A DNA stretch of 39,875 bases. Source: a virus. Both the position numbers and the translations under genes were made by a program. Under the pieces are notes generated by a model, which saw only the letters and a program-made list of their open reading frames with translations, ran no database searches and had not been told where the DNA came from. The stretch is from UHGV virus genome UHGV-0200725; one strand, 5' to 3'. Below are positions 3,821 to 37,138 of this stretch, piece after piece. Positions within the stretch are counted from its first letter, which is position 1; each line of letters begins with the position of its first letter.

Positions 3821-4636
3821 TCACTCTCCTTTGATGCGAATGCCAGCGGCGCGGATTGCAGCGATGACTTCAGAAACTTTGTATGCCATTACCGTTTGGT
3901 AATCATCGTGAAAATCTGTTCGATGAAGCATGCTGCTACGTTCCGGGAGCGATATTTCCCGAGCATCCAGTTCCTTAACGCGTTCCTCCAGTTCGTAGAC
4001 CCTGCATTGTTCTCTATCATCAATCAGATATAACCCAAGACATTCGCTTTCTACCCAACCGCCAAAATCATGATCGTAACGCTCACATGAAAACTCACCG
4101 TCACCGTCCTTTGTTGGAATGGTGTAACTATCTAATGGGCCACCATATGTCGGCACATTCCCCAATGTTGGATGCTCAATCCACATGAAAAATGCACGTC
4201 CGGTTATTGGGCAAATATCTGGCCGCCATTGGTTACGAACAGCCTTGGTTTCGGATAATTCTTCAGCGTGTTGTTTTACTTCCTCAAGCTCAACTCTCAG
4301 CTTCCCAACCGTAAGAGCAATATCCTCGTTCTCCTGGTCACGGCGTTTGATGTATTGCTGGTTTCTTTCCCGTTCATCCAGAAGCGCCAGCACAGTAGCC
4401 GGATTGGCGGCGGCGATGAATTCAGCATTGGCCTGCTGTTCCATTTGGAAATCTTCATCGAAACCGCTTTCTGGATGCGCTCCTTCAATTCTGCAAATGG
4501 GAATATATCCAGCAACTTCACGATGAATTAGCGCATCATCACCATCAAATCGGCTCTCTCCATATTCGAGCGACCACACGCCACACGTTGCTTTCTCTGC
4601 CTTTTCACGCAGTGCCTGATAGTCAATCTTGCTCAT
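3821..4636 (-). CDS. Ea22-like early-region protein
   Basis: 271-aa ORF with central coiled-coil-like segment, resembling lambdoid ead/Ea22 proteins; start overlaps upstream stop. Confidence 0.55.
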   Translation of the reverse strand: MSKIDYQALREKAEKATCGVWSLEYGESRFDGDDALIHREVAGYIPICRIEGAHPESGFDEDFQMEQQANAEFIAAANPATVLALLDERERNQQYIKRRDQENEDIALTVGKLRVELEEVKQHAEELSETKAVRNQWRPDICPITGRAFFMWIEHPTLGNVPTYGGPLDSYTIPTKDGDGEFSCERYDHDFGGWVESECLGLYLIDDREQCRVYELEERVKELDAREISLPERSSMLHRTDFHDDYQTVMAYKVSEVIAAIRAAGIRIKGE

Positions 4637-9669: not shown

Positions 9670-10320
9670 TTATGGAAGGTTTGCTAGTTTTGCATCGACA
9701 ACTACGCCGATGATTTTGCAGTTTCCGTTGATCTCGATCATCGGATATTGTGGGTTAAGTGGTTTTAGAAACTTCCTGCCTGCATCAATAACTAACTTCT
9801 TGAAAGTTGCCTCGTTTTCTCCTTCGAGCTTTGCAACTACCAGTTTCCCGTTACGCGGCTCTACTTCAGGATCGACGAGTATTATCATTCCTTCAGGGAT
9901 ACTGAGACCGGCCGGAGCCGTCATTGAGTCTCCCTTCACGTCCAACCAAAACGAATCTTCTGAACAGTCTACGGTTGTATCGTACCAGTTATCTATTGCA
10001 CGCTTATGATATGGTTCTACAGCTTCCATCCAGCATCCTGCGCTCACCCAGCTAATCAGAGGGAATGACCCTCTTGGATCATGCCTACTGTGATAGGCAA
10101 TGTTTGAAAGACTTTCCTCTCCTTTCATCAGATAGTCAGGGGAACACTTCAACGCATTAGCCAGGGCGAGAAGATTCTCTCCATTTGGCTCTGTCTCAGA
10201 GCGTTCCCACTGAGATATGGCAACATTAGACACGCCGACCATCTTTCCAAGTGCGGCCTGCCTGATCTTGAGTTCTTTTCTCCGAGCGCGAATGCGCTCT
10301 CCCATCAATTGAGTTTTCAT
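9670..10320 (-). CDS. c2: CI-type repressor (P22 C2-like), HTH plus S24 LexA-like autocleavage domain
   Basis: 216-aa ORF; N-terminal HTH (QAALGKMVGVSNVAISQWERSE), C-terminal Ser/Lys autoprotease region (GDSMTAPAGLSIPEGMIILVD...KLVVAKL); matches P22 C2 as recalled. Confidence 0.9.
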   Translation of the reverse strand: MKTQLMGERIRARRKELKIRQAALGKMVGVSNVAISQWERSETEPNGENLLALANALKCSPDYLMKGEESLSNIAYHSRHDPRGSFPLISWVSAGCWMEAVEPYHKRAIDNWYDTTVDCSEDSFWLDVKGDSMTAPAGLSIPEGMIILVDPEVEPRNGKLVVAKLEGENEATFKKLVIDAGRKFLKPLNPQYPMIEINGNCKIIGVVVDAKLANLP

Positions 10321-31669: not shown

Positions 31670-33085
31670 ATGGCTACGTGGCAACAGGGTATTAATTCTG
31701 GTGGTTTTCTGGCTGGCATCGGTACGCAAAATGAGAATGCGCCAAAGGCAAGCGACATTAACGCAACGCTTGGTCTGATCCGCGAAAACAATGAACTGGC
31801 TCGCTCAGGTGCAAATAACATTGGTCTGACCGCGTTACGTGGTCTGGCTGGAGTTGCTGATATTTACAATCAGGAACAGCAACAGAAAGCTATTAGTGCG
31901 TTCAATAAGGTTCACGCTGATGCATGGGCTTCTGGTGATCCATCTGGACTATTTAAGTTTGCCCAGGAAAATCCAGCGTTTGTTGCACAGGCACAACAGG
32001 CGTTTTCCGGTCTTAATGAGCAGCAACGCAACGATATGGGCGATTTAGCCATGAGGGCTAACGTCGCTCTTTCTCAGGGACCGGAAGCCTACAGTAAATT
32101 CATTACTGACAACAAGGACAGGTTAAATCGCGTTGGTGCTAATGCTGACTGGATGATTCAGACAGGTATCCAGAATCCAGAGCAGCTATCACACATGCTG
32201 ACTACTATGTCTCTCGGTGCGCTTGGACCAGAAAAGGCGTTTGCTGTTCAGGACAAGATGGCTGGTCGTGAGATTGACCGAGGCAGGCTGGCAGAGACAA
32301 TCCGCAGCAATCAGGCTGGTGAAGCACTTCAGGCGAGAGGGCAAAACCTTTCCTATCAGTCAGCAATGACTGGGCACAATATCGCAGCACAACGCTTGGC
32401 TCTGGATCAGCAAGAGTTCGGGTTTAAGATGCAGCAAGCGCAGGAAAAGGCTCAGCAGTTGATTAGCGAAGCACCTAAGCTGTCAGTAAACATGGAAAAA
32501 GGCATCGAGACGGCTGTAAACAATGCTACAGCATCATCAAACTCAGCCAATTCTATGAGTGCGCTTGCTCAACAGTTCAGAGCAGAAAAACCAACGACAG
32601 GTTTGTTCGGTAACGCACAGAACATGTTCGCAAAACTTACCGGAAGCGATACAACATTGCGTGATTTGCGCATTCGCCAAAATGCCCTTGTTAACAGTCA
32701 GGTTCTTAAATTCCTACCTCCCGGCCCAGCAACGGATAAAGACGTTGAGATCGTTCGACAGGGTGCGCCAACTGACATGGATAACCCTGAGACGGTCGCA
32801 AGATGGCTTGATGCAATGGCAAACCTTGAGCGACGAAACGCGCAGTTTAATGAGTTTAAAGCCGAGTGGATGAGCGCGAATGGCAACCCTGGACAATCGC
32901 GTAATGGCGGTCAGATATTGGGGTTGGATGTTAAAAAAGGTGAATCATTGGGGAGTGCCGTTAAGCGGTATATGTCAATGAATACTGACGCAGCGCCAGC
33001 ACAAGATTCGACACCTTCAGGAGAACCACGGAATCAGGTTGGATCATATACCTCAAAATCAGGCATTCAATTTACGGTGGAATGA
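31670..33085 (+). CDS. 20: Ejection protein (P22 gp20-type)
   Basis: 471-aa ORF in conserved order. Confidence 0.8.
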
Positions 33086-34923
33086 TGAAAGTAACTGCAA
33101 ACGGTAAGACATTTACCTTTCCTGATGGTACGAGCACCGAAGATATTGGCACCGCCATTGATGAGTATTTTGCTGGTCAGGCTGTTCAGCAACAAATAGT
33201 TAATCAGGCCAATAATGCACCAACACGGGAAGAACCATCATTGATGCAACAAGCTGGCGATTGGCTCACTGGTGGTCAAAGTGCAGGGCAAATTGCAGAA
33301 CAGGCTGGTCGTGGTCTGGTAAACATACCATTTGACGTATTGCAGGGCGGCGCAAGTCTGATTAATGCAATCAGTCAGGGGCTTGGTGGACCCAAGGTTT
33401 TGGATGATGTTTATCGTCCAGTAGACAGACCGACAGACCCCTACGCGCAAGCCGGTGAAACAATTGGTGGGTATTTAGTTCCAGGAGTTGGAACGGCAGG
33501 AAGCATGGCTATTGGATCACTGGCAGAGGCCGCAAATCAGAAAGGCGATTTCGCACAAAATGCAGCTAAAAATGCCGGAGTTAACCTTGCCACTCAGGGT
33601 GTTCTTTCCGCAGCAGCAAAGGGAATAGGGCGTGGAATAACGGCTATAAAAGGTGATATTGCGCCAGAAGTGGCGAAGAAAATTGCCACATCAGAATCGA
33701 TGGGCGTGACACCAATGACATCTGATGTTATCCCGCCGAAAAATGCTTTCACTCGCGGCCTAACTCAGGATGCCGAGGGGGCTTTGCTCGGGACAGGCTC
33801 AAAGCGAGCGGAGCAATATGCAACGCGTAGTAAGCTGGTAAGTAATTATTTTGACCGTTTTGGTGAGTACAACCCTGATGATGTGGTGAAATCTCTTACC
33901 ACCACGTTAAGGGGGCGGAAGGATGCCGCTGGCGCTGTTATCAATGACGTCACCAATAAAATGGGTAATGCCGCAGTTGATACCACAAATACCATGAATG
34001 CTCTGAATACAGCGATCGCAAGACAGGAACGGCTTGGGACGTCTGCCAATCAAAGCCTGCTTACATCCTTGCGTAACCTACGTGAAGAATTAGCAAACCC
34101 TGCAACTGATTTGGATGTTACGTTTGATCTCTTGCGTCAGCACAGAACAGCATTTAGATCTAATGTTCAGGGAGATGCTATGGTCTTCCCCAACCAGGCA
34201 AAAGCAGCTACCAATATGGTAGAGAATGCAATGTCAAAAGACCTTCGTAACGCAGTTGCTAAAAACCTCGGTGCATCAGACGCAGCAAAATACCTTAAAG
34301 CAAATTCCGATTATGCAAACGTTTATAATAAGGTGCTTAATAAAAACATTGCTAACAAGCTCAACAAGGCAAGCAGTGAAGCCAGTCCTGAACTTATAAA
34401 TACCGTTGTATTAAGCAGAAAACCATCTGACGTGAAACGAATATGGAGCGCCCTGGATGATAAAGGGAAAGATGCTATGCGTGCAGCTTACGTCAGCAAA
34501 ATAGCGGAAAAGGCCGGTGACTCTCCAGCCAAGTTCATCACTGAAGTTAATAAGCTGAAATCTCAGTCAGGCGGTGAAATTTACAACACTATTTTTTCTG
34601 GAAAGCACATGAAAGAGCTTGATGCTCTTCATGAAGTTCTACAGCAAACAGCAAGGTCAGACACCGCAAATGTAGTAACTCAGACGGGGCAATCACAAGC
34701 CAACAGGATAAGGACGATTGGCGCAACTGCGACTCTTGGTGTATCAATGGGGCTTGAGGCTGGCTTTGGTGCAATGATGCGTTTGTATGAGTCCAAAGCA
34801 GCAAGGAATGCTCTCTTACGTCTGGCAAACACTAAAGCTGGAACGCCAGCCTATGAAAGAGCGTTGAGTAACGCTGCAAATGCCATCAGGCCGCTGCTTG
34901 CTACTGAGGCAACACAGCAGTAA
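33082..34923 (+). CDS. 16: Ejection protein (P22 gp16-type)
   Basis: 613-aa ORF, last of the ejection-protein trio. Confidence 0.8.
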
Positions 34924-34947
34924 CGTATGGGGAATTGGATTCAATCG

Positions 34948-35337
34948 TTAACATTTTCTTTTTACTTTTCCAACAAAAGCTTTGGTTGAATCCATATTCC
35001 CATAACCAGAAATGGTTTTCGACATTAAAACTGTTCCATTAGGATGTATTACCCATGAGTCGATAACTCGTTGAGTTTCGCCATTCGCGCCGATTCCAAT
35101 GATGGAGTTTTTAGACAATGCTTTGTAAGCCATGCCGCCCGCATCCGTCCCAGAATATGTGATACTGGCATCTTCACCGTTTGTCTTAATGATGAATGTT
35201 CCACTAAAACCATCTTCTTCCGGTTGAAAATTATTTCGTTCTGAATAGCTTATTCCGTGCATATCTCCAACGACCCAGCACTCTGCTGAGACAGAAAACG
35301 AGAAGACAAGGAAAGCCATTGCTATAATCAATTTCAT
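34948..35337 (-). CDS. Secreted hypothetical protein (129 aa) with signal peptide, distal gene of the mnt operon
   Basis: N-terminal MKLIIAMAFLVFSFSVSA then ECWVV; Cys near both ends of the mature protein; beta-rich; convergent with gene 16 (24-nt gap). Confidence 0.65.
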   Translation of the reverse strand: MKLIIAMAFLVFSFSVSAECWVVGDMHGISYSERNNFQPEEDGFSGTFIIKTNGEDASITYSGTDAGGMAYKALSKNSIIGIGANGETQRVIDSWVIHPNGTVLMSKTISGYGNMDSTKAFVGKVKRKC

Positions 35338-35352
35338 TTTAAGCCCTTATTG

Positions 35353-35688
35353 TTATTGATTCTTTTTGCACGGAAATGTTTTTCCTACTGCTAGGGCGGT
35401 TAGTATAACTGCACTCTCATTTCTTGATTCTGGGTTTTTGTTTAGATATTTCTCAACGATATCGGTGTATTGATACATGTCAACGCCATCAGGAGGACAT
35501 AGAGAACCAATTAGTATCAATGAGTCAGTTACTCCGCGCAAATATCCAGTAATGTAAAGCGATGAAAAATCATCACCCTTTTTACCTTGTTGAATGTTGT
35601 AAAGAAGGTCATTACCCGTTTGAAGCTCGCGCAGCTCAGCACTGGAAGAAGAGACAACTGCTAACAAGAACAGTGATAGAAATCTCAT
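35353..35688 (-). CDS. Secreted hypothetical protein (111 aa) with signal peptide, translationally coupled to mnt
   Basis: ATG 35688-35686 overlaps the mnt TGA; N-terminal MRFLSLFLLAVVSSSSA; two Cys in mature protein; helical character. Confidence 0.65.
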   Translation of the reverse strand: MRFLSLFLLAVVSSSSAELRELQTGNDLLYNIQQGKKGDDFSSLYITGYLRGVTDSLILIGSLCPPDGVDMYQYTDIVEKYLNKNPESRNESAVILTALAVGKTFPCKKNQ

Positions 35689-35939
35689 TTCAAATCCTTT
35701 TCATAAATCTTTTTAAGTGTCTCAAACACTATAGCCTTGAACTGCTCAGCCTGCTGATCAGCCAAGCGTTCAGCTTCGTCGCGATATCCTGTAATCGGTG
35801 ATGGTTTTGATAGTGCATCCTGAACGATTTGTAATAACTCAGAGTTCATTGACCTTCCGTTAGCCTCGGCTCTTAATTTCAATTTTTCTCTTACTTCCAA
35901 AGGCATACGGAAGTTAAAGTGCGGATCATCTCTAGCCAT
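35685..35939 (-). CDS. mnt: Mnt repressor (ribbon-helix-helix)
   Basis: 84-aa ORF MARDDPHFNFRMPLEVREKLKLRAEANGRSMNSELLQIVQDAL... matching P22 Mnt as recalled; divergent from arc across an operator region. Confidence 0.85.
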   Translation of the reverse strand: MARDDPHFNFRMPLEVREKLKLRAEANGRSMNSELLQIVQDALSKPSPITGYRDEAERLADQQAEQFKAIVFETLKKIYEKDLK

Positions 35940-35961: not shown

Positions 35962-36013
35962 TTGACATGATAGAAGCACTCTACTATATTCTCAATAGGT
36001 CCACTGTGGACCT
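35962..36013. promoter_or_regulatory. Pant promoter with Arc operator and Mnt operator
   Basis: -35 TTGACA (35962-35967), -10 TATATT (35985-35990); Arc operator ATGATAGAAGCACTCTACTAT (35967-35987); palindrome AGGTCCACTGTGGACCT (35997-36013). Confidence 0.75.
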
Positions 36014-36029: not shown

Positions 36030-36191
36030 ATGAAAGGAATGAGCAAAATGCCACAGTTCAATTTGCGGTGGCCTAAAGAAGTATTGGATTTGGTACGCAA
36101 GGTGGCGGAAGAAAATGGTCGGTCTGTTAATTCTGAGATTTATCAGCGAGTAATGGAAAGCTTTAAGAAGGAAGGGCGCATTGGTGCGTAA
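36030..36191 (+). CDS. arc: Arc repressor (ribbon-helix-helix)
   Basis: 53 aa from ATG 36030: MKGMSKMPQFNLRWPKEVLDLVRKVAEENGRSVNSEIYQRVMESFKKEGRIGA, matching P22 Arc as recalled. Confidence 0.85.
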   Translation: MKGMSKMPQFNLRWPKEVLDLVRKVAEENGRSVNSEIYQRVMESFKKEGRIGA

Positions 36192-36259
36192 AGTTGAAGC
36201 CCCAACTGCTGTAACAGTCAGGGCTTCGGCATCAACAAATCGGATTAGGAAATATTGAC

Positions 36260-37138
36260 ATGAAAAGTATAGCAAAGGCACAAAACGATTTCACCATCTT
36301 CAAATTCGGCGACAGTGAAATCCGCGTCATCAACAAGTGCGGTGAGCTGTGGTTTGTAGCTAAAGATGTTTGTGATGCTTTAGATTTGACTAACTCACGC
36401 AAGGCGCTTACTGCACTTGATGACGATGAAAAGGGAGTAACTTTAAGTTACACCCTTGGTGGTGAGCAGAATCTAAGCATTGTGAGCGAATCAGGTATGT
36501 ATACATTGGTTCTGCGCTGCCGCGATGCAGTCAATAAAGGTTCAGTCCCGCACAAATTCCGCAAGTGGGTAACAGCAGAAGTTCTGCCTTCAATTCGCAA
36601 ACATGGCGAGTATGTAAAAGGAAAGAAAACCACTGTTGAGGAAAGAACACCGCTACGCGATGCAGTAAACATGCTGGTAGGAAAGAAAGGACTTCGCTAT
36701 GACGATGCATACAATATGGTTCATCAGCGTTTTGGTATTGACAACATTGATGAACTTTCAATTGAACAAATCCCGCTGGCCGTAGAGTACATCCACAGGG
36801 TAGTGCTTGAAGGCGAGTTTATCGGCAAACAAGAGAAGAAAACCAACGAGCTTTCTGAAAAAGAAGCAAACAGCCTTGTATGGCTATGGGATTATGCCAA
36901 CCGCTCACAAGCATTATTCCGCGAACTGTATCCGGCGCTGAAACAAATTCAATCGAACTATTCCGGCAGATGTCATGACTGCGGTTATGAGTTCTCCCGT
37001 ATTATCGATATAGCGAGAGACGTTTTAATCAATCACTCACGAGATGTTGATATCAATGAGCCAGACGGACCAACGAATCTTTCCGCATGGATGAGACTTA
37101 AGAATAAAGAATTACCTCCTTCAGTACATAACTACTGA
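36260..37138 (+). CDS. ant: Antirepressor (Ant-like, Bro-N/KilA-N type N-terminal domain)
   Basis: 292-aa ORF downstream of arc; N-terminal region typical of phage antirepressor domains. Confidence 0.7.

Follow-up and report, generated by a model that had tools for sequence, protein, structure and literature searches.

Three described systems lie close to the locus considered here. Rap1a of Serratia marcescens and Tai4 of Agrobacterium tumefaciens (PF18602) are periplasmic proteins that give immunity to type VI secretion system (T6SS) peptidoglycan DL-endopeptidases of the Ssp1/Tae4 type; the Rap proteins have canonical signal peptides and a periplasmic location (PMC3533786), and a signal peptide, residence in the periplasm, a helical bundle and a conserved structural disulphide are traits of the Rap1a/Tai4 family (PMC3533786, PMC5792426). 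SieA, carried by P22, blocks the gp20/gp16 conduit, and its gene is present in only 22 of 66 sequenced P22-like phages (PMC10883804). The hex gene of phage 434 shares its PRM transcript with cI (Shkilnyj, Colon and Koudelka, PMC3564112), and its product is needed, as that paper cites from Susskind and Botstein 1980, for the exclusion of superinfecting P22 by Salmonella(lambda imm434); loss of hex raises spontaneous induction 30-fold in a RecA-dependent manner, and in vitro, a 6-kDa Hex fragment keeps the 434 and P22 repressors from being cleaved under RecA stimulation (PMC3564112). Here we analyse UHGV virus genome UHGV-0200725 (39,875 nucleotides, hereafter the window), a P22-like (Lederbergvirus-type) prophage of Escherichia coli, in which the repressor gene mnt is followed on the same strand by two small genes, ORF111 and ORF129, at the place where P22 carries sieA.

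We hold with moderate confidence that these two genes form a periplasmic protection module carried as cargo of the mnt operon, and the functions we infer for them are immunity to a Tae4/Ssp1-type toxin (ORF111) and exclusion of P22-like phages (ORF129). The features on which this reading leans are the following, in window coordinates.

35685-35939, minus strand: mnt, the first gene of the operon, encoding an Arc/Mnt-type ribbon-helix-helix repressor of 84 residues (Pfam Arc, 3.7e-28, and Repressor_Mnt, 1.3e-11)
35695-35699, minus strand: Shine-Dalgarno sequence AAGGA of ORF111, in the 3' end of mnt, 6 nt upstream of the ORF111 start (read from the sequence)
35353-35688, minus strand: ORF111, an orphan protein of the Rap1a/Tai4 family, periplasmic immunity type (Pfam, fold match and product name given by the NCBI Prokaryotic Genome Annotation Pipeline, PGAP)
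35638-35688, minus strand: predicted Sec signal peptide of ORF111, residues 1-17, MRFLSLFLLAVVSSSSA/ELRE, the slash marking the cleavage site (heuristic n/h/c-region analysis)
35344-35348, minus strand: Shine-Dalgarno sequence AAGGG of ORF129, within the 15-nt spacer between the two genes (read from the sequence)
34948-35337, minus strand: ORF129, a Hex-family protein (phage 434 Hex / Sf6 gp38, phrog_2651), predicted to be an exported 8-stranded beta-barrel, in the slot held by sieA in P22
35284-35337, minus strand: predicted Sec signal peptide of ORF129, residues 1-18, MKLIIAMAFLVFSFSVSA/ECW (heuristic signal-peptide features)

The first-pass annotation had described two same-strand ORFs of 111 and 129 residues behind mnt, in a range (34948-35939) that includes mnt itself, and had taken both to be translationally coupled to it. 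The layout is as described, and the coupling holds for the first gene: the ATG of ORF111 overlaps the TGA of mnt as ATGA (the plus strand reads TCAT at 35685-35688), whereas ORF129 starts without overlap after a 15-nt spacer (TAACAATAAGGGCTTAAAATG) behind the ORF111 stop and has a Shine-Dalgarno sequence of its own, so that strict coupling to mnt is limited to ORF111. Both ORFs have full-length homologs down to 48-67% identity, and both are under purifying selection, the proportion of nonsynonymous differences (pN) against that of synonymous ones (pS) being 0.14 against 0.83 and 0.19 against 0.83 for ORF111, and 0.30 against 0.80 and 0.07 against 0.23 for ORF129; over five comparisons covering both genes pN ranged from 0.07 to 0.35 and pS from 0.23 to 0.83. 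Because full-length homologs exist and pN lies well under pS, the two ORFs are, as judged from their sequences, real genes.

That ORF111 belongs to the Rap1a/Tai4 family is, we believe, close to certain. It matches Pfam PF18602 (Rap1a immunity proteins) with 55.3 bits (cutoff 27.7, E 9.7e-15) over profile positions 1-90 of 90, and in a sequence search of the PDB its only matches were to Agrobacterium Tai4, both of its cysteines aligning with cysteines of Tai4 in 6ijf. The AlphaFold2 model (predicted local distance difference test score 81) has four helices after the signal peptide, and the top seven Foldseek matches of this model in the PDB were all Rap1a (3zfi, 4bi8) or Tai4 (6ije, 6ijf), with probability 1.00, TM 0.73-0.78 and 23-26% identity, the next match having a probability of 0.57; 4bi8 is the Ssp1-Rap1a complex and 6ijf the Tae4-Tai4 complex. 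The T6SS-immunity fold named in the first-pass annotation as one to look for is therefore found in ORF111, and PGAP/RefSeq annotation of E. coli genomes already labels the gene 'Rap1a/Tai family immunity protein'. The NCBIfam and PADLOC scans returned nothing for ORF111 or ORF129. The N-terminus of ORF111 has a basic n-region, a hydrophobic h-region and an AXA-type site (SSA/ELR), and the mature part of about 94 residues contains exactly two cysteines, C64 and C107, invariant in seven homologs. Signal peptides were judged by a simple heuristic, and the h-regions of ORF111 and ORF129 have a mean Kyte-Doolittle value of about 3.0-3.2 over 10 residues.

In its HMM match, predicted Sec signal peptide, size, helical-bundle fold and conserved cysteine pair ORF111 thus resembles Rap1a and Tai4; unlike them it lies outside a T6SS cluster, has no adjacent effector, travels as temperate-phage cargo and is translationally coupled to mnt. 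No effector gene was found near it in the window or in five related loci, and since its neighbours are mnt and a Hex-like gene in a prophage, ORF111 counts as an orphan among immunity genes. Mobile elements are known to carry T6SS immunity genes that are orphan or acquired, as in the acquired interbacterial defence islands of Bacteroidales and the orphan immunity arrays of Vibrio cholerae. ORF111 shares with these the missing effector, the mobile element and the predicted task of a shield against attacking bacteria, and it differs in being carried by a temperate phage and tied into the operon of the prophage maintenance repressor. A role of ORF111 in T6SS immunity seems to us probable.

Every close relative of ORF111 (64-82% identity) is the gene next behind mnt in a P22-like prophage of E. 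coli or Serratia, and together they form a clade confined to this position in such prophages; relatives were found on 15 IMG/VR contigs. Among deposited phage genomes the sole further relative is the 'Tai4' gene of the unrelated lake phage DSL-LC04 (L013, 2932-3258). It lies among the early genes of this 61.5-kb phage and is annotated 'type VI amidase' with a note saying Tai4, which is probably an annotation slip naming an immunity protein as the toxin. In the literature we searched, P22-like phages are nowhere reported to carry a Rap1a/Tai4 gene, and nothing specific turned up on phage-borne Rap1a/Tai4 genes or on T6SS immunity conferred by prophages.

There is likewise very little doubt, in our judgement, that ORF129 belongs with phage 434 Hex (= Sf6 gp38) in the Hex family. 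It matches phrog_2651 at 2.3e-60, as 434 Hex does at 1.4e-58; the two proteins align by BLASTP at 29% identity over 133 columns, that is, full length (E 8e-15), and by hhalign at 98.9% (E 2.9e-17). When phage genomes were searched by tblastn, the family took in Sf6 gene 38 and the gene right after cI in 434, HK633, HK446 and Sf101, which in 434-type phages is hex, at the position of rexAB in lambda. ORF129 and 434 Hex have in common a signal-peptide-like N-terminus, an x-C-W start of the mature protein and a C-terminal FVGxVxGxC, and hex, too, follows the repressor gene of a prophage, the cI/hex junction being ATGA, in an operon expressed in the lysogen, as would be expected of the mnt operon here. 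They differ in that ORF129 is found in the immI/sieA region adjoining gene 16, preceded by a Rap1a gene, and not after cI; no Hex-like gene follows the repressor gene of this prophage itself.

An exhaustive profile search gave 138 cluster representatives (50% identity) of the ORF129 family, almost all of 120-140 residues, with Cys20 invariant and Gly28, Trp95, Gly123 and the C-terminal Cys near-invariant; a profile search with a narrow family alignment found one locus in species-representative genomes. The N-terminus of ORF129 has a basic n-region, a hydrophobic h-region and an AXA-type site (VSA/ECW), a signal-peptide-like N-terminus is present in 70 of 76 family members, and the mature part contains exactly two cysteines, C20 and C129, invariant or nearly so among homologs. 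Signal peptides and cysteine pairs in both proteins had been noted in the first-pass annotation and are borne out. The same annotation, which recognised no family for either ORF, was mistaken on both: each has clear homology to a characterised protein, and both are members of known families.

The predicted structure of ORF129 is a small 8-stranded beta-barrel. A Pfam scan gave nothing at E<=1 for ORF129 and no family for the 76 members, and PDB sequence searches with ORF129 alone and with the 76-member profile yielded chance-level matches only. Several other identities were considered for ORF129 and rejected. It is not a lysozyme inhibitor of the MliC/PliC type, a fold that the first-pass annotation had suggested checking: its profile aligns to validated E. 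coli MliC at 2.4% by hhalign, only the 8-stranded barrel class being common to the two. For an outer-membrane barrel of the NspA/OmpX/Ail-Lom type it is too small, with short strands, no beta-signal and a conserved terminal cysteine pair, and for a lipoprotein it lacks a lipobox, the residue preceding the Cys being E, D, Q or K in most members. Homology to SieA (types A-C) was also rejected, ORF111 and ORF129 matching PHROGs other than phrog_7745 and ORF129 having no multi-pass topology; that the two proteins look different from SieA had been correctly seen from the start.

In the annotated P22 record the order is gene 16 - sieA (with its own promoter) - t_mnt - orf59a - mnt - arc - sar - ant - gene 9, and since orf59a and sieA are the two genes placed between gene 16 and mnt, ORF111 and ORF129 stand in for them, in agreement with the earlier remark that they lie where P22 carries sieA. 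We surveyed 80 Mnt-anchored IMG/VR loci and compared the stretch from mnt to gene 16 in the 64 having both anchors. The gene next to gene 16 was Hex-like in 41 slots and sieA in 8, the remaining 15 having a small membrane-protein gene, of which there were four unrelated sorts, and SieA and a Hex-like gene never occurred together (0 of 64). These counts agree with the published figure of 22 of 66 (PMC10883804).

The sieA, Hex-like and small membrane-protein genes (among the last, at least two unrelated ones) share a start junction, AAAACTAAGGAGGTTGGTGTG (about 20 bp, comprising a ribosome-binding site and GTG), with flanks that are unrelated on both sides, and this junction looks like a boundary for cassette exchange. 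Because all of them begin at a common junction with unrelated neighbouring sequence, the three sorts of gene are, on the evidence of these alignments, allelic cassettes. The junction was seen in loci L016, L040, L050, L075 and L081, upstream of gene 16. In most other prophages the Hex-like gene stands behind this sieA-type junction instead of in a repressor-led operon; ORF129 of the window has lost it and shows TAACAATAAGGGCTTAAAATG instead.

SieA and ORF129 therefore occupy the same genomic slot, between gene 16 and mnt in the gene 16 - gene 9 interval of a P22-like prophage, and we propose a common outcome for them, a block of DNA delivery by P22-like phages. They have no sequence similarity: SieA (phrog_7745) crosses the inner membrane several times, our scan showing four hydrophobic segments, whereas ORF129 (phrog_2651) is predicted to be a soluble, exported barrel with no hydrophobic segment besides the cleavable signal peptide. 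Superinfection exclusion is the most likely role for ORF129 because of the sieA slot, the mutual exclusivity with sieA and the exclusion of P22 by the homolog 434 Hex, and yet we advance it tentatively, as a nearly even call.

Within E. coli a Hex-like gene was found in 148 of 5,426 complete genomes, in only 25 of them together with ORF111, and chromosomal prophages of 31 of these genomes match the 4.3-kb stretch around mnt, ORF111 and ORF129 at 99-99.9% identity; E. coli C (NZ_CP029371) has an identical copy. Aligned with the alleles of other E. coli prophages, ORF129 loses nucleotide similarity at about 35288, near the boundary between signal peptide and mature protein (matches cover query positions 1-349 of 34940-35700). 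About 120 other E. coli prophages have the mature domain in common with the window, with a different signal peptide (MKLIIAMAF... vs V-KQFLAAMFLF...) and different sequence all the way upstream. Most E. coli prophages with a Hex-like gene carry between it and mnt an opposite-strand gene for a lipoprotein of about 139 residues (L014 and L015, about 4015-4435), with a weak PEGA-domain match and the PGAP name 'peptidase associated/transthyretin-like domain-containing protein', which has no counterpart in the window.

The pairing seen in the window recurs elsewhere. A divergent phage, whose Mnt is 34% identical and whose gp16 is unrelated, retains the order mnt-ATGA-Rap1a (67%)-Hex-like (48%), and locus L119 also retains mnt-Rap1a-Hex-like; the arrangement is thus a specific mosaic, yet not unique to the window. 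In a Serratia fonticola prophage (L002, 8001-8715) two tandem Rap1a genes, for proteins of 112 and 119 residues that are 30% identical to each other, follow mnt, resembling the Rap1a/Rap1b and Rap2a/Rap2b pairs of Serratia marcescens. The prophage of Serratia sp. JSRIV002 (L118, 6536-9337) has at the position of gene 16 a protein of 933 residues with an SLT lytic-transglycosylase domain, with a Rap1a gene just across from it and no Hex-like gene. A distant Hex-family member (27% identity; L112, 2252-4602) is convergent with a pair of umuD-like (Peptidase_S24) and umuC-like genes, a single case that may be coincidence and the only context echoing a link between Hex and RecA.

Other loci have other genes behind mnt. 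In another P22-like phage (L004, 2002-2454) an mnt-coupled predicted lipoprotein of 150 residues (MKKLLIISIVVLSGC..., phrog_6067) replaces Rap1a and is followed by a Hex-like gene; it has a weak match to the Cor exclusion PHROG, limited to the signal/lipobox region. In L037 the first gene after mnt, in the position of ORF111, encodes a protein of 105 residues with a clear signal peptide (MKRIAILLLLCLSSIANA/ETK; phrog_19844, no Pfam match). The mnt-proximal cargo is a cytoplasmic Clp-protease-like protein of 178 residues in L034, L030 and L031, and a cytoplasmic protein of 239 residues plus a PIN-domain protein in L094, L081 and L061. The mnt-proximal position is thus a general cargo site, of which exported proteins are not the only occupants.

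The features of the control region and of the remaining neighbours are these.

35967-35995, minus strand: promoter Pmnt, TTGAGA-17-TATCAT, overlapping and diverging from Pant (promoter scan; the position agrees with the aligned annotated P22 Pmnt)
35962-35990, plus strand: promoter Pant (transferred from the annotated P22 record by alignment, and found by the promoter scan too)
about 35967-35987: arc operator (coordinates transferred from the annotated P22 record by alignment)
about 35991-36013: mnt operator (coordinates transferred in the same way)
35456-35483, minus strand: promoter-like site inside ORF111, TTGACA-16-TATCGT, 10/12, a consensus match only
36030-36191, plus strand: arc, 53 residues, starting MKGMSKMPQFNLRWP (the ORF list gives a longer mechanical ORF from 35967)
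36192-36258, minus strand: sar antisense RNA (Rfam RF00262, 65.6 bits against a gathering threshold of 43)
36260-37138, plus strand: ant antirepressor, 292 residues (PGAP 'P22AR C-terminal domain-containing protein / antirepressor Ant')
33082-34923, plus strand: gene 16-type DNA ejection protein, 613 residues, convergent with ORF129 and 24 nt from its stop (PGAP 'DNA transfer protein')

Gene 16 forms the far edge of the slot, and Pfam Phage_P22_gp16 was matched in the syntenic loci. The mnt gene is 83.5% identical in nucleotides to that of P22, and the 111-bp control region including the arc and mnt operators is 98% identical. The mnt operator has one central substitution relative to P22, at 36005 (GGTCCACTGTGGACC vs GGTCCACGGTGGACC), and a second difference lies just outside it. 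In the immI region of P22, Mnt represses Pant in the lysogen and Pmnt remains active. From this logic and the 98% identity of the control region, mnt, ORF111 and ORF129 should, we infer, be transcribed from Pmnt in the lysogen. The scan found no terminator-like site on the minus strand from mnt to the end of ORF129, and no convincing intrinsic terminator after ORF129 (fold z-score -0.77, with one weak pattern match inside gene 16). The promoter-like site inside ORF111 could, as far as its consensus match goes, be a source of ORF129 transcription independent of Pmnt.

The protection module we favour might then work as follows. With Mnt repressing Pant and Pmnt active in the lysogen, a transcript mnt-ORF111-ORF129 would be made, ORF111 being translated in coupling with mnt through the ATGA overlap and ORF129 from its own Shine-Dalgarno sequence 15 nt on. 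Both products would be exported by Sec and cleaved at SSA/E (ORF111) and VSA/E (ORF129), and one disulfide made by DsbA would probably lock each mature protein. ORF111 would bind and block a Tae4/Ssp1-family peptidoglycan DL-endopeptidase delivered from the T6SS of a rival, by analogy with Rap1a-Ssp1 and Tai4-Tae4, and because no effector gene lies alongside, it would shield the lysogen from rivals rather than from self-intoxication. ORF129 would exclude P22-like phages from its place in the periplasm, and a plausible way of doing so is interference with the DNA conduit of gp7, gp20 and gp16, a target of SieA as well.

Several points weigh against this proposal. The identity of ORF111 to characterised Rap1a and Tai4 is only 23-26%, and Rap proteins are highly specific to their cognate effectors, Rap1a and Rap2a giving no cross-protection (PMC3533786). 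ORF129 is only 29% identical to Hex, its barrel fold is of a generic type that points to no particular structural relative, and the P22-exclusion phenotype of Hex is taken only as cited in PMC3564112. The sole biochemistry on Hex describes a cytoplasmic role, the block of RecA-stimulated repressor cleavage (PMC3564112), which would not predict a periplasmic exclusion mechanism. As for transcription, orf59a of P22 is followed by a terminator, t_mnt, and ORF111 here contains a promoter-like site.

Among the competing explanations, the one that survives best, though we think it unlikely, makes ORF129 a second orphan immunity protein, directed against a periplasmic toxin (a T6SS effector, a contact-dependent inhibition (CDI) toxin or a bacteriocin), the module then being a double anti-toxin shield. 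The neighbour of ORF129 is indeed a bona fide member of an immunity family, and divergent phages keep the two genes together; the second position in the Serratia prophage with tandem genes is taken by a second Rap1a paralog; and a small, exported protein with a predicted disulfide is what many periplasmic immunity proteins are. However, in six of six contexts of distant ORF129-family members there is no toxin, VgrG/Hcp/PAAR, CDI or bacteriocin gene, the Hex-like gene is mutually exclusive with sieA at a common junction, and the only homolog studied genetically, 434 Hex, excludes a phage.

It is improbable, we believe, that ORF129 is cytoplasmic, as was published for 434 Hex, and stabilises lysogeny by preventing the RecA-stimulated autocleavage of a LexA-like repressor. 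The induction phenotype of hex and the in vitro block of cleavage (PMC3564112) would fit this, the prophage encodes a LexA-like repressor of 216 residues (9670-10320), and the distant family member described above adjoins umuDC, an S24 system cleaved with RecA. But ORF129 is encoded in the mnt/sieA region, away from the repressor gene, and the signal-peptide-like N-terminus found across the family conflicts, on the face of the sequences, with the published cytoplasmic mechanism; together with the near-invariant cysteine pair flanking the barrel, such N-termini point to the oxidising periplasm. The Hex study used a 158-residue hex ORF, and export, signal peptides and the periplasm were never considered in it; the stable fragment, 'sHex', spans Glu43-Asn103 and was purified with guanidine hydrochloride, and the lethality of full-length Hex overexpression was left unexplained (PMC3564112). 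In our own translation of the 434 cI-hex region (L011, 2429-2908), Hex has 134 residues with its ATG overlapping the cI stop, and Glu43, which is Glu19 of the 134-residue protein, is the first residue after the predicted signal-peptidase site MIRIAALLSILLTTSANS/ECW (ANS/ECW); Asn103 also fits this numbering. A cleaved signal peptide would therefore account for the unexplained N-terminus of sHex, and one might guess that the lethality of overexpression is due to the export signal. Of the predicted barrel, the active fragment covers only about half.

We regard as very improbable the idea that both proteins inhibit peptidoglycan hydrolases of superinfecting phages, ORF111 acting in Rap1a-like fashion on a virion endopeptidase and the barrel of ORF129 in the manner of a lysozyme inhibitor, which would make the module wholly anti-phage: only the fold class and the SLT-domain ejection protein of one relative speak for it, and the MliC homology of ORF129 was tested and rejected. 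That ORF111 and ORF129 are chance frames or decaying, non-functional remnants, as only their small size would suggest, is practically negligible given the many phages with full-length homologs that keep length, signal peptide and cysteine pair, the low pN relative to pS, the family HMM matches and the 138 cluster representatives of ORF129.

Returning to the periplasmic protection module, we may consider a wider reading that takes in the whole Hex family, one that is possible and that we put forward with some reserve. The family, with at least 138 clusters at 50% identity, would consist of widely distributed beta-barrel proteins that are exported to the periplasm and serve superinfection exclusion, a role in which they have so far gone unrecognised. 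In P22-like prophages it would be the gene most often found in place of sieA, in phages of the 434/Sf6 type it would stand behind cI, and it would block the ejection conduit from the periplasmic side. The RecA/repressor mechanism published for 434 Hex would in that case be an indirect effect, or else an artefact of the half-barrel, and in the present prophage the Hex protein would be paired with a phage-specific Rap1a clade as a Mnt-driven shield, effective both against the T6SS amidase of rival bacteria and against competing phages.

Neither ORF represents a new kind of system, since mobile elements are known to carry orphan immunity genes and prophages to carry exclusion genes. The general expectation of the first-pass annotation, that exported, lysogen-expressed cargo genes of this sort are immunity or exclusion factors, fits all of the evidence, while the supposition that they lacked a family gives way to clear homology with characterised proteins. 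In the searchable literature three things appear to be undescribed: a Rap1a clade that is specific to phages and tied to mnt, the standing of Hex-family genes as the chief replacement for sieA, and the export signals of Hex.

If these inferences hold, a common prophage family of E. coli and Serratia arms its host with immunity to a cell-wall toxin of competing Enterobacteria, expressed from the very promoter that maintains lysogeny, so that the phage pays its way in bacterial warfare, and temperate phages would join the known vehicles of orphan T6SS immunity genes. ORF129, as an export-ready Hex homolog allelic to sieA, offers a testable explanation for the two thirds of P22-like phages that are without sieA. 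It also reopens the mechanism of 434 hex, a classical lambdoid gene, because the published cytoplasmic role is ill-suited to a protein with a predicted, cleaved signal peptide.

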